DNA of 64,000 nt from Phyllosticta citribraziliensis (GCF_038025025.1 NW_027117343.1:1736001-1800000), one strand, 5' to 3'; positions 21,866 through 62,552 are shown, counted from the stretch's first letter. Numbers and translations are program-made. Notes: generated by a model not told the origin, from the letters alone.

Positions 21866-22053
21866 GAGGATCTTGTATTAATAGACTTATGAGTCAGTCC
21901 CAACGGCCCATTTAAGGCCCCACGTTCTCTTCAGAGCCAATGGTCGCAGAGTCGCCCACTACCTGCTGTGACATATTTCCTTTTGCGTTCGCGATCGCAT
22001 TTGTCGGAGAATCAGGACAAGCAGATCACCGCCGACGAACCGCAGCGCCAGAC

Positions 22054-50891: not shown

Positions 50892-52984
50892 TTACAAGCC
50901 CGAGTCCTCCTGGCGGTACACGGGGTTCCTGTAATAGTCTCTCCACCCGTCGCAAACTCGCTCGTATTCCCCTCGGTCTCCGAGCGTGCTCAGCACCCGA
51001 TCTCGCTGCTCTAGGAACTGCAAGCTGAAGCCTTGTCCCACGTGCCAGGCTGTCAATCGAGTTAGTATCAATATGAGATTCTTTTCACGGATTTTCAGCT
51101 TACCTATATGGCAGTGCATAAGCCACGCGCCCGGATTATCGGCTGGGAAGGCTATGATCATGTAGCCCAGACCGGGCAGCATTGCCGTGTCTCGACGGAT
51201 CGGGTTGTCAAATTGCAGACCATCCAACGAGCGGTCCCACTGCCCCGTGCCAACGCCCAAGAGGTAAAAGTCGTGGCCTGGAAGTGGTCAGCATCTTGCG
51301 CGCAAACGAAACCATGTCGACTGGTGGGCTTACCGTGCAGATGGATTGGATGGGGCACCGTGATGTTCAACTCTGGCGCCTCTTGGATGACGAAATAGTA
51401 CCACCTGTCCTTCTGCGGGAGCTCGATGAGGTTGATCTCGCGGGGGAAATTGAAGTCGCCGTCAATAACGTACTGCATAGTCGGACGACCCCAGTCAATG
51501 CGCATGGCAGTACCATCCAGGTACCAGTGGAACAGCTGGCCGTCGTTGGTCTGCACCACGCCAGCGTCCAACTCGAGCGAGCGAATCGACTCCAGTAAGC
51601 CATCTTGTGGCACCTGATTCGCAACGCGCGGCACCAGATTGGGCATGTCGTTGCAGCCCTCAGGAATGTCGTCATGTCGCTGAGTATTCGGCTCGCCGCC
51701 GCCGCCGCCGTAACTGAGGATCGCCTTGATATTCCCCGCGTTGCGGTTGCGCGTGCAAGTCCGGTCAGGATCGTAGCGGATCCAGAAGTCGTCGCCGTCC
51801 TGATTCGCCTCAAAGATGACGTTGTAGCGCTGGCCCACGCCGAGCGAAATGTACGACGTGTCGAAGGGCGTGATGGGGATGAAGTCGGCCGAAATCACCG
51901 TCATGATGTGGTTGTCGATCGAAAAGTGCATGAAGTCGTTGACGCCCGAGTTGATGACGCGCAGCAGATATCTGCGGCCCCGCTCAACATTGATCCGGTT
52001 GTAGGACCCACCAGGCCCGTCTGGATTCACCATTGTCCCGTTGATGAGCCCATTGTCCGCTGTTGGCGGCCCTGTCCCCAGGTTGCTGTGGATGGAGCGC
52101 CAGTTCAGCGTGCCGACGGGCGTGTGGTACCAATCAGTCAGCATGTACGATCCCAAATCGACGTCGTAGTCTTCGTTCGCAGGACCCCTGATGACGATGG
52201 CGCCGACGACGCCGTCGCCGTATTGCGCCGTGAAGTGGCTATGGTACCAGCTCGTGCCGTACTGCGAGCACTTGAAACGGTATGTTCTAGAATCTCCCGC
52301 TGCGATTGGACCTTTTCATTCTTCGTCAGTCCTGATCCTTGACAAGTTGTGTCTGAAATTCATACATTCTGTCAGGCCGTTGACCCCGTCATATCCGTTT
52401 GTATTCAACTGCCGAAGACCGTGGAAATGGATGCTAGTTCCGTTGTCTTGCATCGAGTTCTTGACGTGGACCACCATCGTGTCGCCCCAATCTGCTCGTC
52501 ATCAGCCTCGAACATTTGCGGAAACACGAGAGTTCGTACCAGCTTGAAGCACGGGGCCTGGATATTGTCCGTTGACAGCCAGCACCAGACGCTCGAATCC
52601 ATCTGGCGCCAAAGTGATGTTGGTGATTTCCAGATGGTACTGCGGCAAGAATCAGCCCCCTGCTCTGCCCTGTGTTCTCAATAAACGTACCTCCACCACA
52701 TTGGATTCATCGGGGAAGTCTTCATCAAAATCTGTCAAGACGTTGTAGTGGTCTTTCCAGCAGTACCGCGAGTGACTGGAAAAAAGACATCCCAGCTTTG
52801 GCACTGGCAGGTCCAACTTGAGATTGAACGAGGATTTGATCTGCTTGAGGGTTCTCGCCACCAAGCCTCCGGAAGGTTGTGATGAAAGACCGTCTGTGGC
52901 GTCATTGGAGCGAGGGAGCAACGAAGCCGCGAGGGTGTAGGAGCACAGTGCCAAAAGGCACGCGCTCAAACGAAAGAGAAACAT
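50892..52984 (-). CDS. Secreted laccase / multicopper oxidase (AA1, asco-laccase), multi-exon
   Basis: Signal peptide. Cu motifs SIHFHG, SWYHSH, HPIHLHG and WLMHCHI|AWH. C-terminal DSGL plug typical of ascomycete laccases. Confidence 0.95.
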
Positions 52985-54419
52985 TTTCGGATCCACAAGA
53001 GGGGGTACAGGAGAAACCGTCGGATCGCCTCACAATGTACAGTATCAACAAGCGAGAGACTGAGTTTTAACAGCAGCCTCGCCCGCCGACGGCAACAGCG
53101 TTTTAAAAAAACTCGACTGGACGTCCAATTTCCCATGATCCGGAACGTCTTCTAGGTCTTTGATGCTTGTACATTTGGCCGCATGGCAGGGCCGTCTGTG
53201 GTCGAAAAAAGTCTTTCCAGGATCAGAGCACCAGTGGGCATCAAACGGCAGGCTGGAGCACCGGCAACAAGCCTGCATAGCCATGTCCACAGGGCAAGAC
53301 TGTGGTCCGGGAAGAAAGGAAGATCAGGTCCCGAGGCGAACACTCGAGATTCGGGCCGCCGTCAAGGATTGTGCAGCAGGGCTGATGGGAATGAAACAGA
53401 GCCGCCAGGCGATCGTGTTTACCTAAACGGGCAACTGTTGTCGCTATTTACAGCAGCGCTGTGCACAAGAGCCGCGCTGGGATGCTCCATGTCCCGCGCC
53501 AGAACCCTGTGCACATCTCGTTGACAAGCTTTGCTTGGCTCCAGCTGAGGTGCGGCCGTCATCCAGCTGTCACTTGTGCATGGTCGGCGAGCTGACGAAA
53601 CAGCGGCTTGCGATCTAGCGCTCTTGCTTCCAGGTGCTTCAGAGAGTCGTTTGCTCCCACGAGCTTTCGTAGACGAAAAGACAACGAAGAAAAATCCCCT
53701 TCAAGTGATGGCAGAGGACGTCGAGGCCAAGCTTTGATAAGGCTACCAACGTCGGCTCTCCAACCGGGAAATCTGCCAACTCTATTGCGAGTTGACCACT
53801 GCTAACCACAAACTACCTTTCTCGTCCCGCGCTGTGGACGCCGCCTTGGGCCCAGCCAAGACCGAGGCCTGTTTGAGCCCAAAGCTGATACCTGGTTCTC
53901 GGGCTCCTGCAACACCACTGTCCTGCAAAACCCGGTTATATCCACAGTGGGGCTATGGCATTTAGCCTCTCTGGCGCGATAAAATGAAGGACGTGATCAT
54001 GAACTGTCATTATGCAAGCCGATCAAAATATCAAGACGACCTCTCACGCGAAAGACAAAACGACGACTGTCCTCTACGGTACACGTTTACTCGCGATAAG
54101 GTCGCTCCATCAGAACGGTATCGACTTAGTGTCGTTCGCGTAGCCCAGGGATCCCTTTGATGCAAAAACAACACCAGCCTCCTATACTCGATCCCGCAGC
54201 CGCACCGAACTTGGAACCTTATTGAGCCTCTAGCCGCTGCGGCTGTGCTGCACGCCTACTACGTCGCTGGCAAGCTGATCGACATTCACCCGCACTCAAA
54301 TTCGACTTGCGGGCTCAATCACCCGCGTCTTGTCACTGACATGTTCCATTCCAAGTCCAATCATTATTTCCATTCGCATTCCGCGCTCGACTTAGCTACG
54401 ACAGGTGGAAGCTTCCAAG

Positions 54420-55099
54420 ATCAGCCCAACCTCGCCACTATGGGGCCCCCCAACCAACCTCCTCCACCACCGCCATGGTTCTCCCCAAGACAGGTAGCTC
54501 CGCTATATTTAGAGCATAGAGCGACCCGTTTCTCCCCGGACTTTGCTTCACCCCGACGAGGAGATGGTCGTTTTGACTGTCGTTGAATTGAAGCTGCTCG
54601 ACACTTTTACGGCGGACGTGGTGTTGTGTGCGGTTGAACCCGGAAAATGGGTGACGGTCGTAGTCAGCGTGACGTTGGACACTGCGGGTGGCGCCGTGGC
54701 AGCGGCAGCAGCGCAGCAAGCAGGGGCCGTTGTGACAACAGTGGAGCAAGCAGGCGTCGAGCTGGATCGTTTGGAGCTGGAGCTTGTCGACTTCTTGCTC
54801 GACGAGCTGCTCCTCTTAGACGACGACTCGGACGAAGACGTCACGACCCGCACCGACATGTCCAGAATGTCGAGGACAATGCTGAGAGCCACTGTCTCTG
54901 TTACAGTGGCGACTGGTGCCGCGACGGTTGAGTTCCTTAGGCGCGCGGAACTGAGGCTGCTCGGTGATGCCGATGCCGACGATGATGCCAGCGCACTACC
55001 ACTCCCGCGGCCCGTGGCAGTGCTAGTCGATGTCGCGGTAGTCTGGGCGCCGGCGCAAAATGAACCAGCCGCCAATACGAGAAAGGAAGCGAGTCTCAT
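54420..55099 (-). CDS. Secreted Ser/Thr-rich cell-wall-type protein; ends at TGA 54548, or via a 49-nt intron at ~54420
   Basis: Signal peptide MRLASFLVLAAGSFCAGA, then a strongly S/T-rich body with NxS/T sequons (NST, NVT, NTT). Possible gtgaag..tatag intron leading to a Gly-rich tail. Confidence 0.75.
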
Positions 55100-56061
55100 G
55101 ATGCGATGAGCGGCAAGTGGTTGTATTCTAGCCCCAGCCCCCGGAGCAAAAAACAACGCAGAAGGCTTAAGATACCCACAATATGCGATGGGTCCGCGGC
55201 TCTCATAAACACCTCCAGCCGACCTGGCGCGGAGCCACTTGATCCGCGAACGGACAACGACAATGACTGCTTCGGATTCGCTCTCTCTTCTTTGCGTGTG
55301 GCCGTTGTCTCCCTCAATCGGTACCTGTCAGCCGGTACGGGCCGTCTGTCTGTTGGGTCGTGAGCATTTTCGAAACTTGCGTGAGGAATTCCTTTGGCGT
55401 TGGGCTCTAGCGCTGACGTCCGTTGTCCATGCAGGAACATATTCTGCAAGTTCAAACAGCTGGCGCTCTTTGTGCGCCCTTCCCCTGGGCAGGAATAACC
55501 GGCCCAAGCCGTTTGAAAACCTGGGTTTGACACTTCTCTCCAGCTTTTCCCTTTGCTCGGGTCAATGAGGTCGCTCAGGTTCTCGTGCTCAGAGATAAGC
55601 ATATTAATATTCAGTTCTTTTTTGTTTTGGGATTTTCGGACCCTCTGACATCACCCCGGGACTCGAAAGAAACTTACGACATCACTACCGCGGCGAATCT
55701 CTCTTCGGACATTTGGGCGCCATCACGACATCTTGGACGTCTTTGATGGCGTCTTGTTGCTTCATCGTTTCCCCTTGCCGGTATTGAAAGTGGCAGAACA
55801 CCATCACGGCCTTTCTTGTTCTGTCCGCTTCAATTTCTTGGCCTCGATCGCAGGATCTATAATGAAAGCACGTTGCCAAGGTCTGGACTCGGCAAAGAAT
55901 CCATCAAACGGCAAGAGAAGGCCTTCACTGCATCTGCGGCGGCTATATAGATCACTTTGATCGGTTGTCGAGGCTTCCGGGGTGTTCCATTCAGTCTGTC
56001 ATTAGTATAGTGTCACTGTCTGGTCTTGAGCAAGGCTTCGTTTCCTTGTTGTCAAAACATC

Positions 56062-57315
56062 ATGCCTTTTACGCACCGTCGCAACCGTTCAAATGAGATC
56101 ACGCCGGCTCTGCGGCGTGTCATTCCGCGGGGAGACTTTATCGACATTCACAAGATTGAGCCCTGCGTCTGCGTCGTCGGTGTCGGCTTTGTGGGAGAAT
56201 CGCTACTTCGCGAATTCGGCCATGTCTTCAAGTCTATCGGCTTCGACATCTCTCAAAAACGCATCGACGAGCTGAAACGGGCGTTCAAAGACCTACCCAA
56301 TGTCACACTCACGGCCGACAAGGAGCAGCTGGGCCGAGCGACTCACTACCTCATCTCTGTGCCGACCCTTCTCAAAGAGGACCGCTCAGTCAATCTGTCG
56401 CATCTCCTTTCCGCCGTCAGCTTGGTCATGGGCTACGCGCGGCCCGGCGCGGCTATCGTCCTTGAGTCGTCTGTGTGCGTTGGGACGACCCGCCAGCTCT
56501 TCTCCGCCTACCAGGACAACTACCACTGCGGCATGTCGCCCGAGCGTGTCGACCCAGGGCGCGTCGCTCCCACTGCAAAGGCCATTCCCAAGCTCGTCTC
56601 TGGCCTGACGCCCAAGGCCCTGAGCCTCATCCAAACCCTCTACGCTCAAGTCTTCGATCACGTGGTTCCTGTCTCGTCGCCCGAGACGGCGGAGATGACC
56701 AAGCTCTTTGAAAACTGCTACCGCATGATCAACATTGCGTACGTCAACGAGATGGCCGACGCCGCCCGCAGCCACGGCGTCGACCCAGATGAGATGATTC
56801 GCGCGGCCAGCAGCAAGCCGTACGGCTACACGCCCTTCTCGCCTGGACTCGGCGTCGGCGGGCACTGCATCCCAGTCAACCCCTTCTACCTGTTCGCCAA
56901 CAACAAGAACCTGCCCGTGCTGGAGAAGGCGACGGCGCAGATGTGGAAGCGGCCCGACACCAAGGCAAGGACGTTCTACCGCCGCACCAGCTCCGCGTCC
57001 GCCGACCATCTTCCGCGCATCCTCGTCGTCGGCCTGGGCTTCAAGCCCGGCCAGTCGGTGCTGTCGTGCTCTCCTGGCATCTCGTTCGCCGAGCGCCTGC
57101 GCAAGTTGGGGTGCCGCCGTCTCGCGTTCTACGACCCGCTCGTTCAGCGCGAGGCCGTCGACTGGATGGAGAAGCTGGACGACGCCTCGTGGGACCCGCG
57201 GTATCTCGAGGACAACTTTGACGCCGTCGCCATTTGCATGCGGCAGGCGGGCGTCGACTTTGGCGTTGTCGAAAAATTGCAGCCGGACAGGATCAAGGTG
57301 CAAGAATTTAAGTAA
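56062..57315 (+). CDS. UDP-glucose/GDP-mannose dehydrogenase family, UDP-GlcNAc/ManNAc 6-dehydrogenase type (WbpA/TviB/WecC-like), intronless
   Basis: Rossmann VVGVGFVG, SVPT, LESSV, SPERVDPG, AEMTKLFENCYRMINIAYVNE, catalytic PGLGVGGHCIPV, and LGFK. Confidence 0.92.
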   Translation: MPFTHRRNRSNEITPALRRVIPRGDFIDIHKIEPCVCVVGVGFVGESLLREFGHVFKSIGFDISQKRIDELKRAFKDLPNVTLTADKEQLGRATHYLISVPTLLKEDRSVNLSHLLSAVSLVMGYARPGAAIVLESSVCVGTTRQLFSAYQDNYHCGMSPERVDPGRVAPTAKAIPKLVSGLTPKALSLIQTLYAQVFDHVVPVSSPETAEMTKLFENCYRMINIAYVNEMADAARSHGVDPDEMIRAASSKPYGYTPFSPGLGVGGHCIPVNPFYLFANNKNLPVLEKATAQMWKRPDTKARTFYRRTSSASADHLPRILVVGLGFKPGQSVLSCSPGISFAERLRKLGCRRLAFYDPLVQREAVDWMEKLDDASWDPRYLEDNFDAVAICMRQAGVDFGVVEKLQPDRIKVQEFK

Positions 57316-57433
57316 AGGGTTTTGTTGAGAGGATTTGATTTCGCTAGACTGTTGATAGTTGATAGTTGAGATTTGATTTTGTTTCGTTCGTCAAAGGTAG
57401 AGCAATTTCATGATCCTTAAAGAGCTTTGAATT

Positions 57434-60241
57434 CTACATGACTTCTGTCTCGTGTACATGTTCCTCGTCTGAACCCGAGAGTTGCGGACCTGTCAGGCCC
57501 TTCTCGGCCTTTTTCTCTGCTTCCAGCTTCTCTGCCTCCTGTTCTGCCACTGACGTTGCGGCTGGAGCCGACGAGGCAGTTACACCCGACATTCCCCACA
57601 CTGCATTGTCAAAGTCAGCTCATTGTTCAATCCGGCCAGGGGGAAAGTGCGAGGAAATTCTTTGTCTCGGAATCCTGAGTACAGCACAGTGACCAGGAAC
57701 AAACGTACCTTGGCTCCCCAAGTTCTTGGCGACCTTTGTGAAGACGGTGAGAGAGATGAACGGACTGATCATCTTGTTGATGCAGAAGCCAATGACGAGC
57801 TTGTGCGCCCGCTTGCGCAGTTCGTGCTCCAGGAAGAAGACGCAAAACATGAACCACATGGTCGGCAGCTGGCTGACTATGATCAGCGGTAGGAGCTCCA
57901 TGAATGTCACGCCCTCGGTCAGCCCTTTGAGGAAAAGAAACGTGTTGAAGATGCGGTAGTAGACCATGGAAAGCCTAACGACTTCTATTGAGGCTGCGAT
58001 GCGGGTGATGACTATCATCTGCGGCGATGTCAGTTGGCTGCCTTTCGAACTGAGTGTTGCTCATCGTACCTTTTCGCCCATCCAGTAGAAGTAGTTGTTG
58101 AAGTATGCGTTTGAACCCCATCGTCGTCGCTGGGACAGATAGTGCTGCAGAGACTGCGGTGCAACAGTCTCACTGACCGCCTCAGGAACAAAGAGCGTGT
58201 GGAGCTTTTTGTCTTGAGAGAGCATCGAGTACGTGAGCCGTCGATCGGTCCCCTAAGACATCAGCAAGCTCGGATGGAAGAAAAAGGTTGCGAGACTCAC
58301 GAGATACTGAACCTGGTGGTGGATGACCGGGTAGATGGTGATTGGCTCCGCATACTTTCGAATTGCACCAGCCATTTCCTCGCGGACAGCTATCATTGTG
58401 ATGCAACCTGGCAAGCAAGACACCTTGCCAATAAAGCCTTCCGCTCGCCTGCGAACGTACTGTCCAAAAGTGTACTATGATCTGTCAGTTCACATACGCA
58501 CCTCGCAGCCCGGTCTGCAAAAGATCTCTTGAACGCTTTTAGCGCGTACTCACTTGAAATTGCTGGTACAAGTTCCAGAAGGACCACTCGAATCCTGGCT
58601 CCAGCTCAACCAGGACCAGTCCGCAAGCCGCGATTGCATTCTTGTCCCTTGCGAGGGCGTTTGCTAGACTTGCCACTGCCCCTTTGTAGATTGTCGAGTC
58701 GGCATCGGTACAAAAGACCATGTCAAAGTCTTTGAAGTTCTGGCCTTCGGTCAACTTGGGTAGAATGTCCGTCCAAATTTCTTCTCTTAATAGTCGCGTG
58801 TACAGCGGGACGTTGTGGCGCGGTACGTTGAAAAGATCGTGGCACAGAATGAGGGAATCCTTCTTGCCTACAAGTAGGTTAACGTCAGCGTCTTTGCTTC
58901 CATATGCTCCCAATGGCGGCTCTTCTCACCGCTATTCTTCAGCTTCTCAATCACAATGACAGGAACGTCTTCCATGAATCCCGCTGTAATCTTGAGCACG
59001 CCTCGTTTGTGCTTCAGCGAGATGTATGGCCGCTGGAACTCGCGTACAAAGCGAGTCATGTGTCTGCGTACATCGCGCGGCTTGCCATCGAGCAAGACGA
59101 CCATGACTTGACGGTGCGGCTCAACATCGTTGTCCCGGAGCGAGTAGATGGTCTTGACAATTTGCTCCTCGCTCTCCGAATACGCCGGAATGAGTGTGAG
59201 GATCCATTGCGTGGGAACGGGCGGAAGTGGCTTGAAGATACGGTATATTTTCCTGACGAAGAGACCAAGCGCTGAAATGATGACGGAAAGAAAGTCTTTG
59301 CTTTTGATGAATAGAATGAAACAGAACACGACCATACCCTCGTTGGCGAACAGAGCTACCATGGCCATGCCAATGTTGAGGCAGAGGATCACACCGAAAA
59401 AGAAGATGCGTTGGTTGCGCAGGTCCTTGGGTCCAAGGATTCGAGCAGGGTCTTCGGGGTCTGGAATTTCGGGATATCTGCAGCCTTCGACCTTGTCCTC
59501 CAATCGGACTGATTCCTTCTCCGCTTGGCCGCCTTCGGCATCTTCTTGCGCTGTAACGTATCCTCCTTGGCTTTCTTTGCCAGTACTTTGAAGTGTATTT
59601 GTACGCGAGATGCCTTCTTCTGCGCACGTAGCGAAGGATATGGTGGACAACGAAGCTCTGGTGGGCGGTGCCGTGGAATATGAGTCGAAACTTGGCCTGG
59701 TGGATTCATCCACCCTCGCGGCCGTCTCCGTGTCGAAGTAGGCGGAAGAGGCAAGCGACGGCGTCGGCGCAGGCCGTGTGTCTCTGAGACTTGTATGCAA
59801 GAATGTCGGCACAGGACACACAGTGGTCGTAATCCCAGGGCCATTGTCATGGTGTTTATTCGAGCGCTCAAGATCCAGAGGAGTTTCGATAGTCGCCCAG
59901 CTCGAGGCTGCACTTCTGATAGTCTGTATTGGACATCCGAGTTGTGTGGTTGACACATCGTCGAGGACTGTGAGTGTGGAAGAAAGCTCCAAGGCAAGGC
60001 TTGATGTCGATTTTCCTGGGGATATCTGGGCAGGCGACGACTCGATGGTAATCCAGCTCGATGTCGAGCTTCTGGGCGCGTCGGTCGCTTCGAGCTCAAT
60101 CTGCTGGGTCGCCGCAAGTTCCGGGTCTGGCTGTTGCGCAACATTGTCGAGAACACAGGCTGTAGACGAGACTTGCGGGGTAGGATCTGTCTCTGTAACA
60201 GCATTGGAGTTGATGTCATCAACACCAGCCAAATTACTCAT
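57434..60241 (-). CDS. Atypical chitin-synthase-like processive GT2 glycosyltransferase, multi-exon
   Basis: LIPAYSES, KNS|GKKDS, FCTDADS, QQFQ|YTFGQ, TCLPGCITM, LGTDRRLT, YLSQRRRW, C-terminal TMs and Q|VWG. N-terminus is S/T/acidic and disordered, followed by TM helices. Confidence 0.88.
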
Positions 60242-61056
60242 TAATGCATGCCAGCCATTGCAGAGTGGCCGTCGTCAAGGGACATCACACGTTCCGTCTG
60301 TACATATGAGCGGGACATGCTAGAGAAACTCTCAACACCCGCATTGCAAAAGCAGTGTGGGGTGGATGATCCCCCGTTTGCGGGGAAGAGCAAAGAAAGT
60401 GCACTGATTCCGGGAAATTCAGCAAGAGCATGCGCAAAACAATGAATCTTGCACGGAAATCCAAGCATTGGCACGGCAGAAGTGTGGGGAGTGATTTTTC
60501 CCGGGATGCCACCAGAGGCGGCCGAGGGGGATTTCCTTGCTCATCGCGGAAACGGGAAGCTTGTTGATGTTGCACGTTCTGAAAAGATGGAGGTTGCAAC
60601 AAAGACAATGGATGTTGTCGAAAGGAGAAGTCGCAAACGCAGGAGTTGTCCAGTCGCTTCGCCTATGTTGCTGAAATTGGTTAGCTCCATATTCCTATCT
60701 TTCACGACACCTCTTCCAACGCGCACCTTCTCATCTGCCCATCTTCCATATCATGCATAGCAAGATGGACTAATGCTCAGAATCAACTCAGCTTGGCGTC
60801 CAAGCCTCTTCTCTTCACCGGTCAGTGTGTGAAACGGAAAAGAATGTGCGAGATCGACGAATCGACTACACAACAAAGCCGGCGCTTTGTTTGCGATCCA
60901 GCTGCCAGGGGAAAGAGAAATTGGCAAGAGTTTTGTTTGTCACTGGGGCCAAGGATGGCATCATGGAATCCATTGCCCAACTGTCGACCTTGAAAGACGC
61001 CACTATACCAACAATTTCCGCAACAAACTCAATAGCCGCGCGCTTCACCCCGGCTC

Positions 61057-62136
61057 TCACCCCTCCGCCAAGACAGCCTTGGTGTACGCCAAAAAATCAA
61101 GTCCATTCTCCGCCTTGACGGCCAAGCCTCTCGGGCCATCCCAAAACATCACGCCTCCAAACTTGGCCTCGTTCCAGCGGAGCAGATCCGGTCGTCGTGC
61201 CAGTCGTATTGCGTCACCAAAGCTTTCCGGAGACACGAACCCCAGGTTGTCGTTGTCGAAGCTCAGTCCTCCCAGCAAAACCTTGGGTGACGGCGACAGA
61301 GGCAACGGCACGAGGTCTTCGTACCAGGTCCTGAGCGATCGGCGGAACGCTGGCGTGCCGAGTGAACACGAGGCCTTGTTGTAGAAGCGGATGAAGATGA
61401 AGTCGACGAGGGCCAGAGCTGTCTCCGAGATGGGTCGATTCGTGGTATCACAGGTTGGAGCGGCCGAGATATACATGGGCTTGGAGGCCGACGCGAGGTA
61501 AGAGTGCAGAGCTGACACGAAGGTGTCGTAGTGGGCGGGTGAGCCGACTTCGTGGTCTGCCACGGTCAGTCAATCAGCCTTTCGCCCAGCAACGCCTTGG
61601 GAGGATTCGTTACCAATGTCAAACCCGTCAACGACGACATCGCGGCCCAAAGGACGCAAATATGGCACTGTTTTACCTTCTCCAAACAGCTCCCACATCG
61701 ACTTTGCCGCATCTTCGGCTGCCTGGCGTCCTTCGATGCCGGTTCCGAACGACGTGTTGGACGTGGAGCCGCCAATGCTCACGTAAATCTTCTTGCCCAA
61801 CTCCTGGCACCTCTTGACCTGCCTTCCGAGCTCCGTACACACGGCCATTCCCGGGGCCACTGTTGCATTGGCCGGTCTCGCGTCACTGCAGACCCATGGC
61901 CCAAAGTCAACCGTGGGATATCCGGCTGTGTCCGTGAAGCTGCGAACGAAGCCGAGGATGATGACGTCCACGGCAGCGTTGCTGCAAAGATTGGTCAGGC
62001 TCGCGTTGCGGCCTGAGGACTGCGCAAAGTATACGAAGAGATTCTGCGCGCCTTCGGCGTCGAAGTCTGCCCCCGTCGATGCTGGGAATGCGCAAAAGAT
62101 TGCTACTGTCCCGTACAAAATATGGCGCAGGAACAT
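61057..62136 (-). CDS. Secreted GH18 glycoside hydrolase (class III / subgroup B chitinase-like), 2 exons
   Basis: Signal peptide, KKIYVSIGG, YLRPLG. Splicing (gtaacg..ctgac..cag) restores the catalytic DGFDIDHE (DxxDxDxE). YISAAPTC, FIRFYN, FGGVMFWD. Catalytic domain only. Confidence 0.92.
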
Positions 62137-62552
62137 GGTGTGTGTTGTCGTCTCCTACACGACCGGCCACGCTGGCTGCGCACCCCTATCTCATGCGGGC
62201 CACTCGAGACGTCGAAGCAGACTGCGAGGCGCCCGCGCGATCTTTGTTCTCCACCAGGAGGCATTGGCACATCTTGTCGTTTCACGCAAGCGTCTCTCCC
62301 GATCAACTGACTATTCTTTCAGCTTCGATAAATCCCGCACACCGGCCTACGCGCCTAATCTTTCCATCTTGTCCAAAGACCATCTGCTTGCGAGTCTTTG
62401 TGCACGTCATCGATGCCCCCGCGGTATATGAGCATTGTCCTGTCGATGGCAGTCCTGCGGCATTTCATTTCGTTCATTGACCGACGTCTGGGTCCACCGA
62501 TCGCGATCCACCATCTGCAGTCACCGCAAACCGATTTCACAGCCGACAACAC

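Follow-up and report, generated by a model that had tools for sequence, protein, structure and literature searches.

A virus-like chitin synthase, a UDP-HexNAc-type dehydrogenase and a recurrent GH18 with an altered -1 subsite in Phyllosticta citribraziliensis: a candidate gene module for an acidic chitin-like polymer

The product of the virus-like fungal chitin synthases (CHS) has been an open question since 2014. In that year, the text of Chen et al. (G3; PMC4059230) described a "novel CHS-like gene" and an adjacent dehydrogenase gene, UNGD, in Wangiella (Exophiala) dermatitidis, reported the two-gene cluster from some fungi and from viruses of brown and green algae, proposed that UNGD feeds the glycosyltransferase, and found that the fold changes of the two genes were similar at low pH and under radiation. 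The names ESV and CV for the fungal classes come from Gonçalves et al. (2016, BMC Evol Biol; PMC5122149), whose text linked UNGD to both classes and a polysaccharide deacetylase to the CV class, and stated that evidence of functionality was not yet at hand for the ESV class. In Trichoderma, Kappel et al. (2020, PMC7053769) described the arrangement chs8-cda1-UNGD and a CHS8 that carries QRKRW. Here we describe a locus that sequence similarity places with the ESV type, in a stretch of 64,000 nucleotides of Phyllosticta citribraziliensis (GCF_038025025.1 NW_027117343.1:1736001-1800000), called the window below, with positions counted from its first letter. The locus consists of four contiguous genes, which encode a Ser/Thr-rich protein, a UDP-N-acetylhexosamine (UDP-HexNAc) 6-dehydrogenase-type nucleotide-sugar dehydrogenase (UNGD), a chitin-synthase-like family 2 glycosyltransferase (GT2; the protein is called CHSL) and a class III GH18. 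The first and the last of these are predicted to be secreted, the signal peptides being called by eye together with a hydrophobicity count.

The core of the locus, UNGD with CHSL, and its interpretation as precursor enzyme plus polymerase are already in print; the product is not. The earlier note on this DNA had mentioned virus-like fungal CHS genes beside such dehydrogenases, and the pair is indeed what the texts of Chen et al. 2014 (PMC4059230) and Gonçalves et al. 2016 (PMC5122149) describe. Like the ESV-class pair in those papers, the window locus has the same two families, their adjacency, the logic of UNGD feeding a GT2, and no polysaccharide deacetylase. Unlike it, the window, several Dothideomycetes and an Arthoniomycete add a class III GH18 of a dedicated clade directly upstream of CHSL. 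A chitinase is not mentioned as a cluster member in the text of Chen et al. 2014, Gonçalves et al. 2016 or a 2025 review (PMC12653383), figures and supplements being outside this statement. A literature search for a fungal UDP-GlcNAcA or GlcNAcA (N-acetylglucosaminuronic acid) polymer, or for a chitinase in a UNGD cluster, returned nothing beyond the papers cited here, with subscription journals and supplements outside its scope. The link of a GH18 to an ESV-type CHSL was thus not found in print, and we regard the locus as a known cluster type with a GH18 extension. The CV-class or CHS8 cluster (chs8, cda1 and UNGD) resembles it in joining UNGD, a virus-like CHS and one polymer-modifying enzyme, and two groups of metagenomic loci described below (L011 and L014) have a GH18 of a sister clade together with UNGD and a QRKRW-type CHS. 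In contrast, the window synthase carries QRRRWGSNAYF and LGTDRRLT, not QRKRW, and the modifier is a glycoside hydrolase, not a deacetylase. The locus adds evidence for the transcription and splicing of an ESV-type gene in a plant-associated Dothideomycete; a third gene, also conserved, for a GH18 whose active site departs from those of chitinases at conserved positions; and a recurring combination of UNGD with varying GT2 synthases and varying polymer-modifying enzymes.

On balance, and with moderate confidence, we read UNGD, CHSL and GH18 as a module that makes and trims a chitin-like polymer containing GlcNAcA. UNGD would oxidise UDP-N-acetylglucosamine (UDP-GlcNAc) to UDP-GlcNAcA in the cytosol; CHSL, embedded in the membrane, would polymerise and extrude a beta-1,4-linked chitin-like chain with GlcNAcA, alone or mixed with GlcNAc; and the secreted GH18, whose -1 subsite appears remodelled (Gln to Arg), would cut or trim the chain outside the cell, a role close to that of the dedicated hydrolases of bacterial synthase-dependent exopolysaccharide systems. 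Among bacteria, loci with a synthase and a dedicated hydrolase include those for cellulose (BcsA/BcsZ), poly-N-acetylglucosamine (PgaC/PgaB) and alginate (Alg8/AlgL), and the Vi antigen is made by TviB/C/E. The likeness to these loci lies in the union of an enzyme that modifies a sugar nucleotide, a GT2 polymerase-translocase in the membrane and a secreted enzyme that acts on the polymer, and, for the Vi pathway, in a TviB-type oxidation of UDP-GlcNAc that gives a HexNAc-uronate polymer. They differ in having no homology beyond the GT2 and dehydrogenase superfamilies and a hydrolase from a family other than GH18, while the fungal genes are separate eukaryotic genes with their own promoters. 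The earlier note had claimed a UDP-HexNAc-type dehydrogenase, a chitin-synthase-like GT2 tightly linked to it with the stops convergent and about 120 bp apart, a secreted and catalytically intact GH18, and no unrelated gene between the four. All of these claims stood when the four genes were rebuilt, as detailed below: the two stops were measured at 118 bp apart, and nothing recognisable was found in the intergenic stretches or beyond GH18.

UNGD was encoded by a single exon on the plus strand (56077-57315, 412 residues). The N-terminal and central domains of Pfam UDPG_MGDP_dh scored above their cut-offs, the C-terminal domain reached 21.1 against a cut-off of 30, and TIGR03026 was matched with 234.8 bits against a cut-off of 189.8. 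The motifs GVGFVG and GVGGHCIP were present, with the G, C, I and P columns of GGHCIP invariant in 21 sequences. Identity was 96% to the Phyllosticta citrichinensis protein, 94% to that of P. citricarpa and 61% to the UNGD of Exophiala dermatitidis. Models of UDP-glucose dehydrogenases gave 40-53 bits, lower than those of UDP-HexNAc dehydrogenases (110-123 bits), which supports, at the level of sequence, a closer relation to the latter. The equivalog scores were 123.3 against a cut-off of 750 and 109.5 against 459 for UDP-N-acetylmannosamine (UDP-ManNAc) dehydrogenases, and 112.1 against 592 for TviB. Every equivalog cut-off was missed, including that of the characterised UDP-GlcNAc 6-dehydrogenase type, and we therefore only infer that the substrate is UDP-GlcNAc and the product UDP-GlcNAcA.

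It has also to be considered that the dehydrogenase acts on UDP-ManNAc or another UDP-HexNAc. The polymer would then carry ManNAcA, or GalNAcA if an epimerisation followed, as teichuronic acids or the Vi antigen do. The best equivalog score (123 bits) and the best PDB matches (UDP-ManNAcA dehydrogenase 4r16, then Cap5O 3ojl) pointed in this direction, the NCBI name of the Phyllosticta orthologues is UDP-ManNAc dehydrogenase, and in one related locus type, L011, the cluster is flanked by an NAD-dependent epimerase. Nevertheless, the equivalog scores were far below their cut-offs with a similar value for TviB (112 bits), no 2-epimerase or other epimerase was found in the window's cluster, and fungi are not known to make UDP-ManNAc. 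The tree of Chen et al. 2014 (Figure S4 as cited in the text, PMC4059230) placed the fungal enzymes with UNGD. Taken together, this substrate appears very improbable to us.

CHSL was modelled on the minus strand (57434-60241) as six exons (60241-58930, 58867-58554, 58474-58301, 58252-58070, 58018-57709 and 57600-57434) that encode 819 residues, with GT..AG at the ends of all introns. The model aligned end to end with the 821-residue model of Phyllosticta citriasiana at 87% identity and was 96% identical over 629 residues to the P. citrichinensis protein. Transcript evidence came from the Logan contigs of four public runs on positions 54400-62200, these runs being only presumed to be RNA. Two runs were from the same organism (X1, and X2 from another study) and two from a relative (X3 and X4; 90-99% alike, about 92% identical). 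The contigs of X1 had 0-1 differences each from the window and covered 30 of 30 bins of the region, those of X2 17 of 30. Only contig cover and joints were used, which are no measure of expression levels, and uncovered stretches in X2-X4 are uninformative. A 1249-nt contig of X1 carried the joints 57600>57709, 58018>58070, 58251>58300 and 58474>58554, all CT..AC on the plus strand, which are introns 5, 4, 3 and 2 of CHSL; the joint 57600>57709 was carried by X2 and X4 as well. These joints show that processed CHSL transcripts exist in this organism. Intron 1 was accepted because the spliced reading, KNSGKKDSLIL, matches the family consensus. The only contig at this place, from X1, keeps the predicted intron 1 (58868-58929) unspliced and ends five bases on in adapter; the unspliced stretch (58868-58934) could reflect intron retention or an assembly path through pre-mRNA.

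The spliced protein contained the motifs FCTDAD, LGTDRRLT, QRRRW and QVWG. The core residues of the first three were invariant in a 14-sequence alignment of the family, and in QVWG only the G was. On single exons the Pfam Chitin_synth_2 domain was weak (19.6 and 16.1 bits), while on intron-poor relatives it reached 90-107 bits. The family is large and fungal, its members are often named "ESV-1-84", and it includes the protein of E. dermatitidis (P0133). CHSL was 66-96% identical to members of the family match list and 24% identical to the QRKRW-type CHS of L011 and L014; its placement in the ESV class was made by similarity. Among PDB chains, the chitin synthases 7wjn and 7wjm were matched with about 42 bits (42.5 for 7wjn) and the Chlorella-virus hyaluronan synthase 7sp7 with 22.6 bits, and CHSL as a class I hyaluronan synthase was rejected on this comparison.

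The same nearness to solved chitin synthases, together with the intact CHS motifs, favours a plain chitin module, in which CHSL would be an extra chitin synthase, GH18 an ordinary class III chitinase that remodels the chitin of CHSL, and UNGD would make UDP-GlcNAcA for another glycoconjugate or regulate the supply of UDP-GlcNAc. Reports on the CV class point to chitin too, since loss of FgCHS8 lowers the chitin content (Zhang et al. 2016 as cited; quoted in PMC5122149) and the CHS of chlorovirus CVK2 makes chitinase-sensitive fibres (as quoted in the literature). The distribution of UNGD argues the other way: it stays beside a GT2 across fungi and giant viruses, with three types of GT2. In view of this distribution and the GH18 active site described below, we rate a plain chitin module as the less likely reading, but as a serious rival.

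To describe the distribution, each of the four window proteins was compared with 80 metagenomic loci around UNGD relatives. UNGD had an ESV-type CHSL (39-82% identity) next to it at L001, L002, L009, L010, L027-L029, L050 and L066, and the pair was also found by consecutive locus tags in Capronia epimyces, Capronia coronata, Elasticomyces, Chrysothrix and Neophaeotheca. At many other loci, UNGD was accompanied by a more distant CHS (21-27% identity to the window protein) with QRKRW or QRRRWTL, often with a deacetylase nearby. At two loci, UNGD (51-60% identity) lay beside a GT2 that is not a CHS (Pfam Glyco_tranf_2_3), namely at L008 (9782-17160), where a GH16 and a Zn2Cys6 factor were also present, and at L062 (5872-11258). 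No GT2 was found within the flanks examined at L007 and L017. UNGD thus seems to pair with several kinds of processive GT2 (ESV-like, CHS8-like and non-CHS).

A giant-virus relative was found in a metagenome-assembled genome from IMG/VR (L081, 7781-19069), with the order deacetylase, CHS, two DUF3627 proteins, GFAT, UNGD, deacetylase. Its CHS had ESV-type motifs and was 35% identical to the window CHSL and 27% to the QRKRW class, and its UNGD (40% identity) lay within 5 kb of the CHS; no GH18 was found at the locus. The CHS of L081 was therefore nearer to the window class, yet its neighbours included deacetylases, a feature linked to the CV class in the literature. A profile search of viral contigs for UNGD confirmed no relative; the L081 UNGD was found by tblastn at a locus fetched through its CHS and not by the profile search, and the DNA patterns used were therefore too narrow. 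The surface polysaccharide genes of chloroviruses and giant viruses (hyaluronan synthase or CHS, GFAT, UDP-glucose dehydrogenase or UNGD, and deacetylase) are like the fungal locus in clustering precursor enzymes with a processive GT2. L081 differs in having GFAT, two deacetylases and no GH18, whereas the fungal genes contain introns and stand among ordinary fungal genes.

The GH18 gene was located on the minus strand (exons 62136-61614 and 61556-61057, within 61057-62136), and its 340-residue product had a signal-peptide-like start. The 57-nt intron (61557-61613) lies inside the catalytic DxxDxDxE motif and begins after the first base of the codon for the third Asp, so that the unspliced frame reads DGFDIGNE, without the third Asp, and the spliced one DGFDIDHE. 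A catalytically dead GH18, as the unspliced DIGNE would suggest, was ruled out by this splicing, and the catalytic Tyr of RFYN was present. The joint 61556>61614 was carried by contigs of both runs of the relative (X3 and X4), which show that processed GH18 transcripts exist in this approximately 92% identical relative; the X1 contig over GH18 was unspliced. At L002, L011 and L014, the GH18 motif is split by an intron at the same position as in the window. The best PDB matches were the class III chitinases ScCts1 (2uy2), AfChiA1 (2xtk), Chit33 (7zya) and hevamine. An endo-beta-N-acetylglucosaminidase was considered and rejected, as all the PDB matches were class III chitinases or their lectin or inhibitor relatives and none was a chain of such an enzyme.

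GH18 matches occurred at 7 of the 80 loci, which collapsed to three lineages, and all were within about 2.5 kb of CHS or UNGD. L002 had the order and strands of the window, with UNGD followed by CHSL and GH18 on the other strand. Beside an ESV-type CHSL, a GH18 was found in six lineages: the window, L002, Neocucurbitaria cava, Coniocarpon cinnabarinum, Diplodia intermedia and Botryosphaeria dothidea. In N. cava, the protein P0183 (locus tag N0V83_002221) has an N-terminal GH18 fused to CHSL and adjoins UNGD (N0V83_002222); in C. cinnabarinum, the gene model P0189 likewise fuses an N-terminal GH18 to CHSL and also holds a MAPEG domain. Both fusions are probably merged neighbouring genes. In D. 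intermedia the GH18 (SLS58_000186) adjoins CHSL (SLS58_000187), and in B. dothidea UNGD is SLS57_011362 and GH18 is SLS57_011364. In 10 species, a GH18 orthologue and CHSL and/or UNGD were found on longest contigs of the same size, which is weak evidence of linkage. The 337-residue GH18 orthologue of Neofusicoccum parvum (P0241) is named "glycosyltransferase family 2 protein" by its source, a name probably carried over from the neighbouring CHSL.

The sister-clade GH18 was found in two further arrangements. The group of L011 (1521-12137; also L012, L013 and L041) combined an NAD-dependent epimerase/dehydratase, a QRKRW-type (CHS8-like) CHS, UNGD and the GH18; its epimerase recalls the TviB/TviC logic (UDP-GalNAcA). 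The group of L014 (2451-18626; also L015) combined a Zn2Cys6 factor, a GT1/GT28-type glycosyltransferase, UNGD, a CHS8-like synthase and a convergent GH18, and may be a regulated five-gene cluster.

The membership of GH18 was judged against the possibility that GH18 and the Ser/Thr-rich gene are bystanders from inherited Dothideomycetes synteny and only the two-gene pair is a unit. Such a history would fit the absence of GH18 from four of the five ESV-type metagenomic lineages with at least 5 kb beyond the pair (L002, L009, L028, L050 and L066), where GH18 was present at L002 and absent from L009, L028, L050 and L066, as well as the failure to find a homologue of the Ser/Thr-rich gene elsewhere (80 loci, 240 proteins). 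It accounts poorly for a GH18 linked to the pair in Botryosphaeriales and Pleosporales, in an Arthoniomycete and in an unplaced lineage from metagenomes, for a sister GH18 clade linked to UNGD with a different synthase class and in other gene orders, for clade-specific substitutions in the GH18 active site, and for GH18 matches at so few of the loci, all close to CHS or UNGD. We therefore consider bystander status improbable. The claim of the earlier note that GH18 belongs to the cluster held as to its co-location in several lineages and its cluster-specific clade, but not in the four metagenomic lineages from which it was absent; GH18 appears, from these comparisons, to be a lineage-restricted but recurrent, sequence-specialised third member.

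To place the GH18, its exon 1 was used in a search of 1.84 billion representatives, which gave 894 proteins at E up to 0.001. From the best 150 of these 894 and P0183 and P0189, 48 sequences with at least 230 aligned residues were combined with four spliced sequences in a first tree, where an 8-row clade (SH-aLRT 100) held the four ESV-linked GH18s known at that stage and a 6-row clade (99) held L011 and L014. A second tree of 49 rows included named proteins from a profile search. All six ESV-linked GH18s were in one 19-row clade (SH-aLRT 99), whose other 13 rows were ten named proteins of Botryosphaeriales or Pleosporales and three without names; L011 and L014 were in an 8-row clade (99) with Phlyctema vagabunda and Coniochaeta.

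The active sites were compared on the same 49 rows (19 ESV-linked, 8 of the sister clade and 22 others). In hevamine, subsite -1 includes Gln181, Asn184, Ala224 and Gly81, and the catalytic residues are Asp125, Glu127 and Tyr183 (PMC3662789). The DxxDxDxE motif was intact in 18/19 ESV-linked, 8/8 sister-clade and 22/22 other rows, and Tyr183 of FYN was kept in every row covering it. Both the Gln and the Asn of QFYNN were kept in 22/22 other class III rows, whereas QFYNN was changed to RFYN or RYYN in 19/19 ESV-linked rows (Gln to Arg) and to QFY followed by Ala, Gly or Ser in 8/8 sister-clade rows (Asn replaced). The Gln of APQC was lost in 19/19 and 8/8 rows of the two clades and kept in all 22 others, and the Gln of YxGQ was Arg or Lys in 8/8 sister-clade rows. 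Compared with hevamine, the window GH18 has Arg for Gln181 and Thr for Gln158 and keeps Asn184, and thus departs from the canonical -1 subsite; across the ESV-linked clade, the Gln158 position holds Thr, Leu, Ser, Gly or Val. The window protein is therefore like the class III GH18s (hevamine, ScCts1, AfChiA1 and Chit33) in DxxDxDxE, the Tyr of FYN, the Trp of GGVMxW and the signal peptide, and unlike them in the replacement of Gln181 and Gln158, the loss of both Gln residues being invariant in the cluster-linked clade and absent from 22/22 other rows.

These substitutions bear on both sides of the plain chitin module. The retained DxxDxDxE and Tyr183 are what an ordinary chitinase would have; the loss, in both cluster-linked clades, of -1 subsite residues that 22/22 other class III rows keep is not. 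As judged from the alignment, both clades keep the machinery of 2-acetamido-dependent catalysis, alter the surroundings of the -1 sugar and gain a basic residue. An altered -1 subsite of this kind would fit a substrate that keeps the N-acetyl group and differs elsewhere on the ring, for example by a carboxylate at C6.

We put forward, as a tentative proposal that goes well beyond the module itself, that the cluster-linked GH18 clade is not a chitinase and could be the dedicated hydrolase of an undescribed acidic chitin-like polymer (poly-GlcNAcA or GlcNAc/GlcNAcA) that the ESV-type synthase would build from the UNGD product. The invariant -1 Arg would then be a carboxylate-recognising residue, and the sister clade would have reached the same end through an opened Asn184 position plus the basic residue in YxGQ. 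If this were true, UNGD plus a GT2 plus a tailored hydrolase or deacetylase would be a modular HexNAc-uronan system of fungal and giant-virus surfaces, and the GH18 would lend itself directly to detecting and digesting the polymer. In any case, the GH18 offers a biochemical handle on whether an acidic chitin-like polymer exists in fungal walls, a point that bears on immune masking of chitin and on adhesion.

Several points weigh against a GlcNAcA-containing polymer made and trimmed by the module. The missed equivalog cut-offs, the orthologue names, the CV-class reports of chitin and the absence of GH18 from four ESV-type lineages, all given above, are among them. In addition, no GH18 of either clade from Fusarium, Colletotrichum or Exophiala was among the matches listed in a word-limited search, though these genera carry the pair, and the text of the 2025 review (PMC12653383) treats both classes as unclassified, with no product known for an ESV-class synthase. 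Both GH18 trees were quick LG+G4 searches, and the second left the order of the major clades unresolved and had long branches flagged (L002, P0183, P0189, P0341 and P0385). The roles of the subsite residues were taken from the hevamine description in one paper (PMC3662789), not from a model of this GH18.

The Ser/Thr-rich gene lies on the minus strand (54548-55099), with its ATG at 55099 and stop codon at 54548-54550. The 183-residue product has 42% Ser+Thr (48 S and 29 T) and a signal-peptide-like N-terminus, and contigs of 4/4 runs covered the gene in part or whole. Compared with the relative of about 92% identity, at least 11 of at least 16 differences, among those listed, were at third codon positions (p=0.004), and the single indel inside the frame was 3 nt long. 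Because of this third-position excess and the in-frame indel, the open reading frame (ORF) is a real, constrained gene within the genus. The left edge of 54420 in the earlier note implies a second Ser/Thr-rich exon, of which the contigs show no joint, and the gene was ended at 54548. A second exon with a glycosylphosphatidylinositol signal, reached from a possible donor at 54548, was likewise set aside for want of a joint, an absence that contigs cannot prove. A 5022-nt contig of X1 (depth 277.8) covers, without a joint, both the Ser/Thr-rich gene and all of UNGD together with the 977 bp between them (54400-57396); overlapping transcripts, read-through or DNA in the run could be its origin.

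As a conserved member of the cluster, which the earlier note had made it, the Ser/Thr-rich protein found no backing: homologues were present at 0 of 80 metagenomic loci (tblastn with the low-complexity filter on) and among none of the 240 collected proteins. The four-gene synteny proposed there thus stood for the conserved UNGD/CHSL pair and the recurrent GH18, but not for this protein. A composition screen, which covered the window and those fetched loci that measured 6 kb or more, gave four secreted Ser/Thr-rich ORFs. Three were beside a UNGD+CHSL pair, one in the window and two, non-homologous, at L009; the fourth, at L017, overlaps the ORF of UNGD and probably arose as an artefact of an alternative frame. 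No such ORF was found at L002 and L066, and at L050 an ORF with WSC and Ser/Thr-rich parts, non-homologous to the window gene, adjoins UNGD divergently. These numbers are too small, and therefore no claim of membership is made; the place of the gene in the cluster is unproven, and its product is probably an ordinary wall or secreted glycoprotein.

As to the layout of the locus, the Ser/Thr-rich gene and UNGD are divergent, with 977 bp between their ATGs (55100-56076), and contigs pass through this region without a joint. An ORF at 55099-55650 gave no Pfam match. UNGD and CHSL are convergent, and 815 bp separate the CHSL ATG from the GH18 stop. The genes of the window have short GT..AG introns, and the ORFs around the cluster are unrelated to it: a multicopper oxidase (51161-52315), a cyt-4-type RNB exoribonuclease, an MFS transporter and a FYVE protein. 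Closest to the cluster on its left side is the laccase-like multicopper oxidase gene (51161-52996, minus strand), whose signal peptide is probably encoded by an exon at 52652-52996. The G+C content of the window was 22-29% over bases 1-22000 and 52-58% over the remainder, and the AT-rich block (0.22-0.29) meets the gene-rich DNA (0.52-0.58) at a sharp boundary near 22000; the block looks like an isochore of the repeat-induced point mutation type or degenerate repeats.

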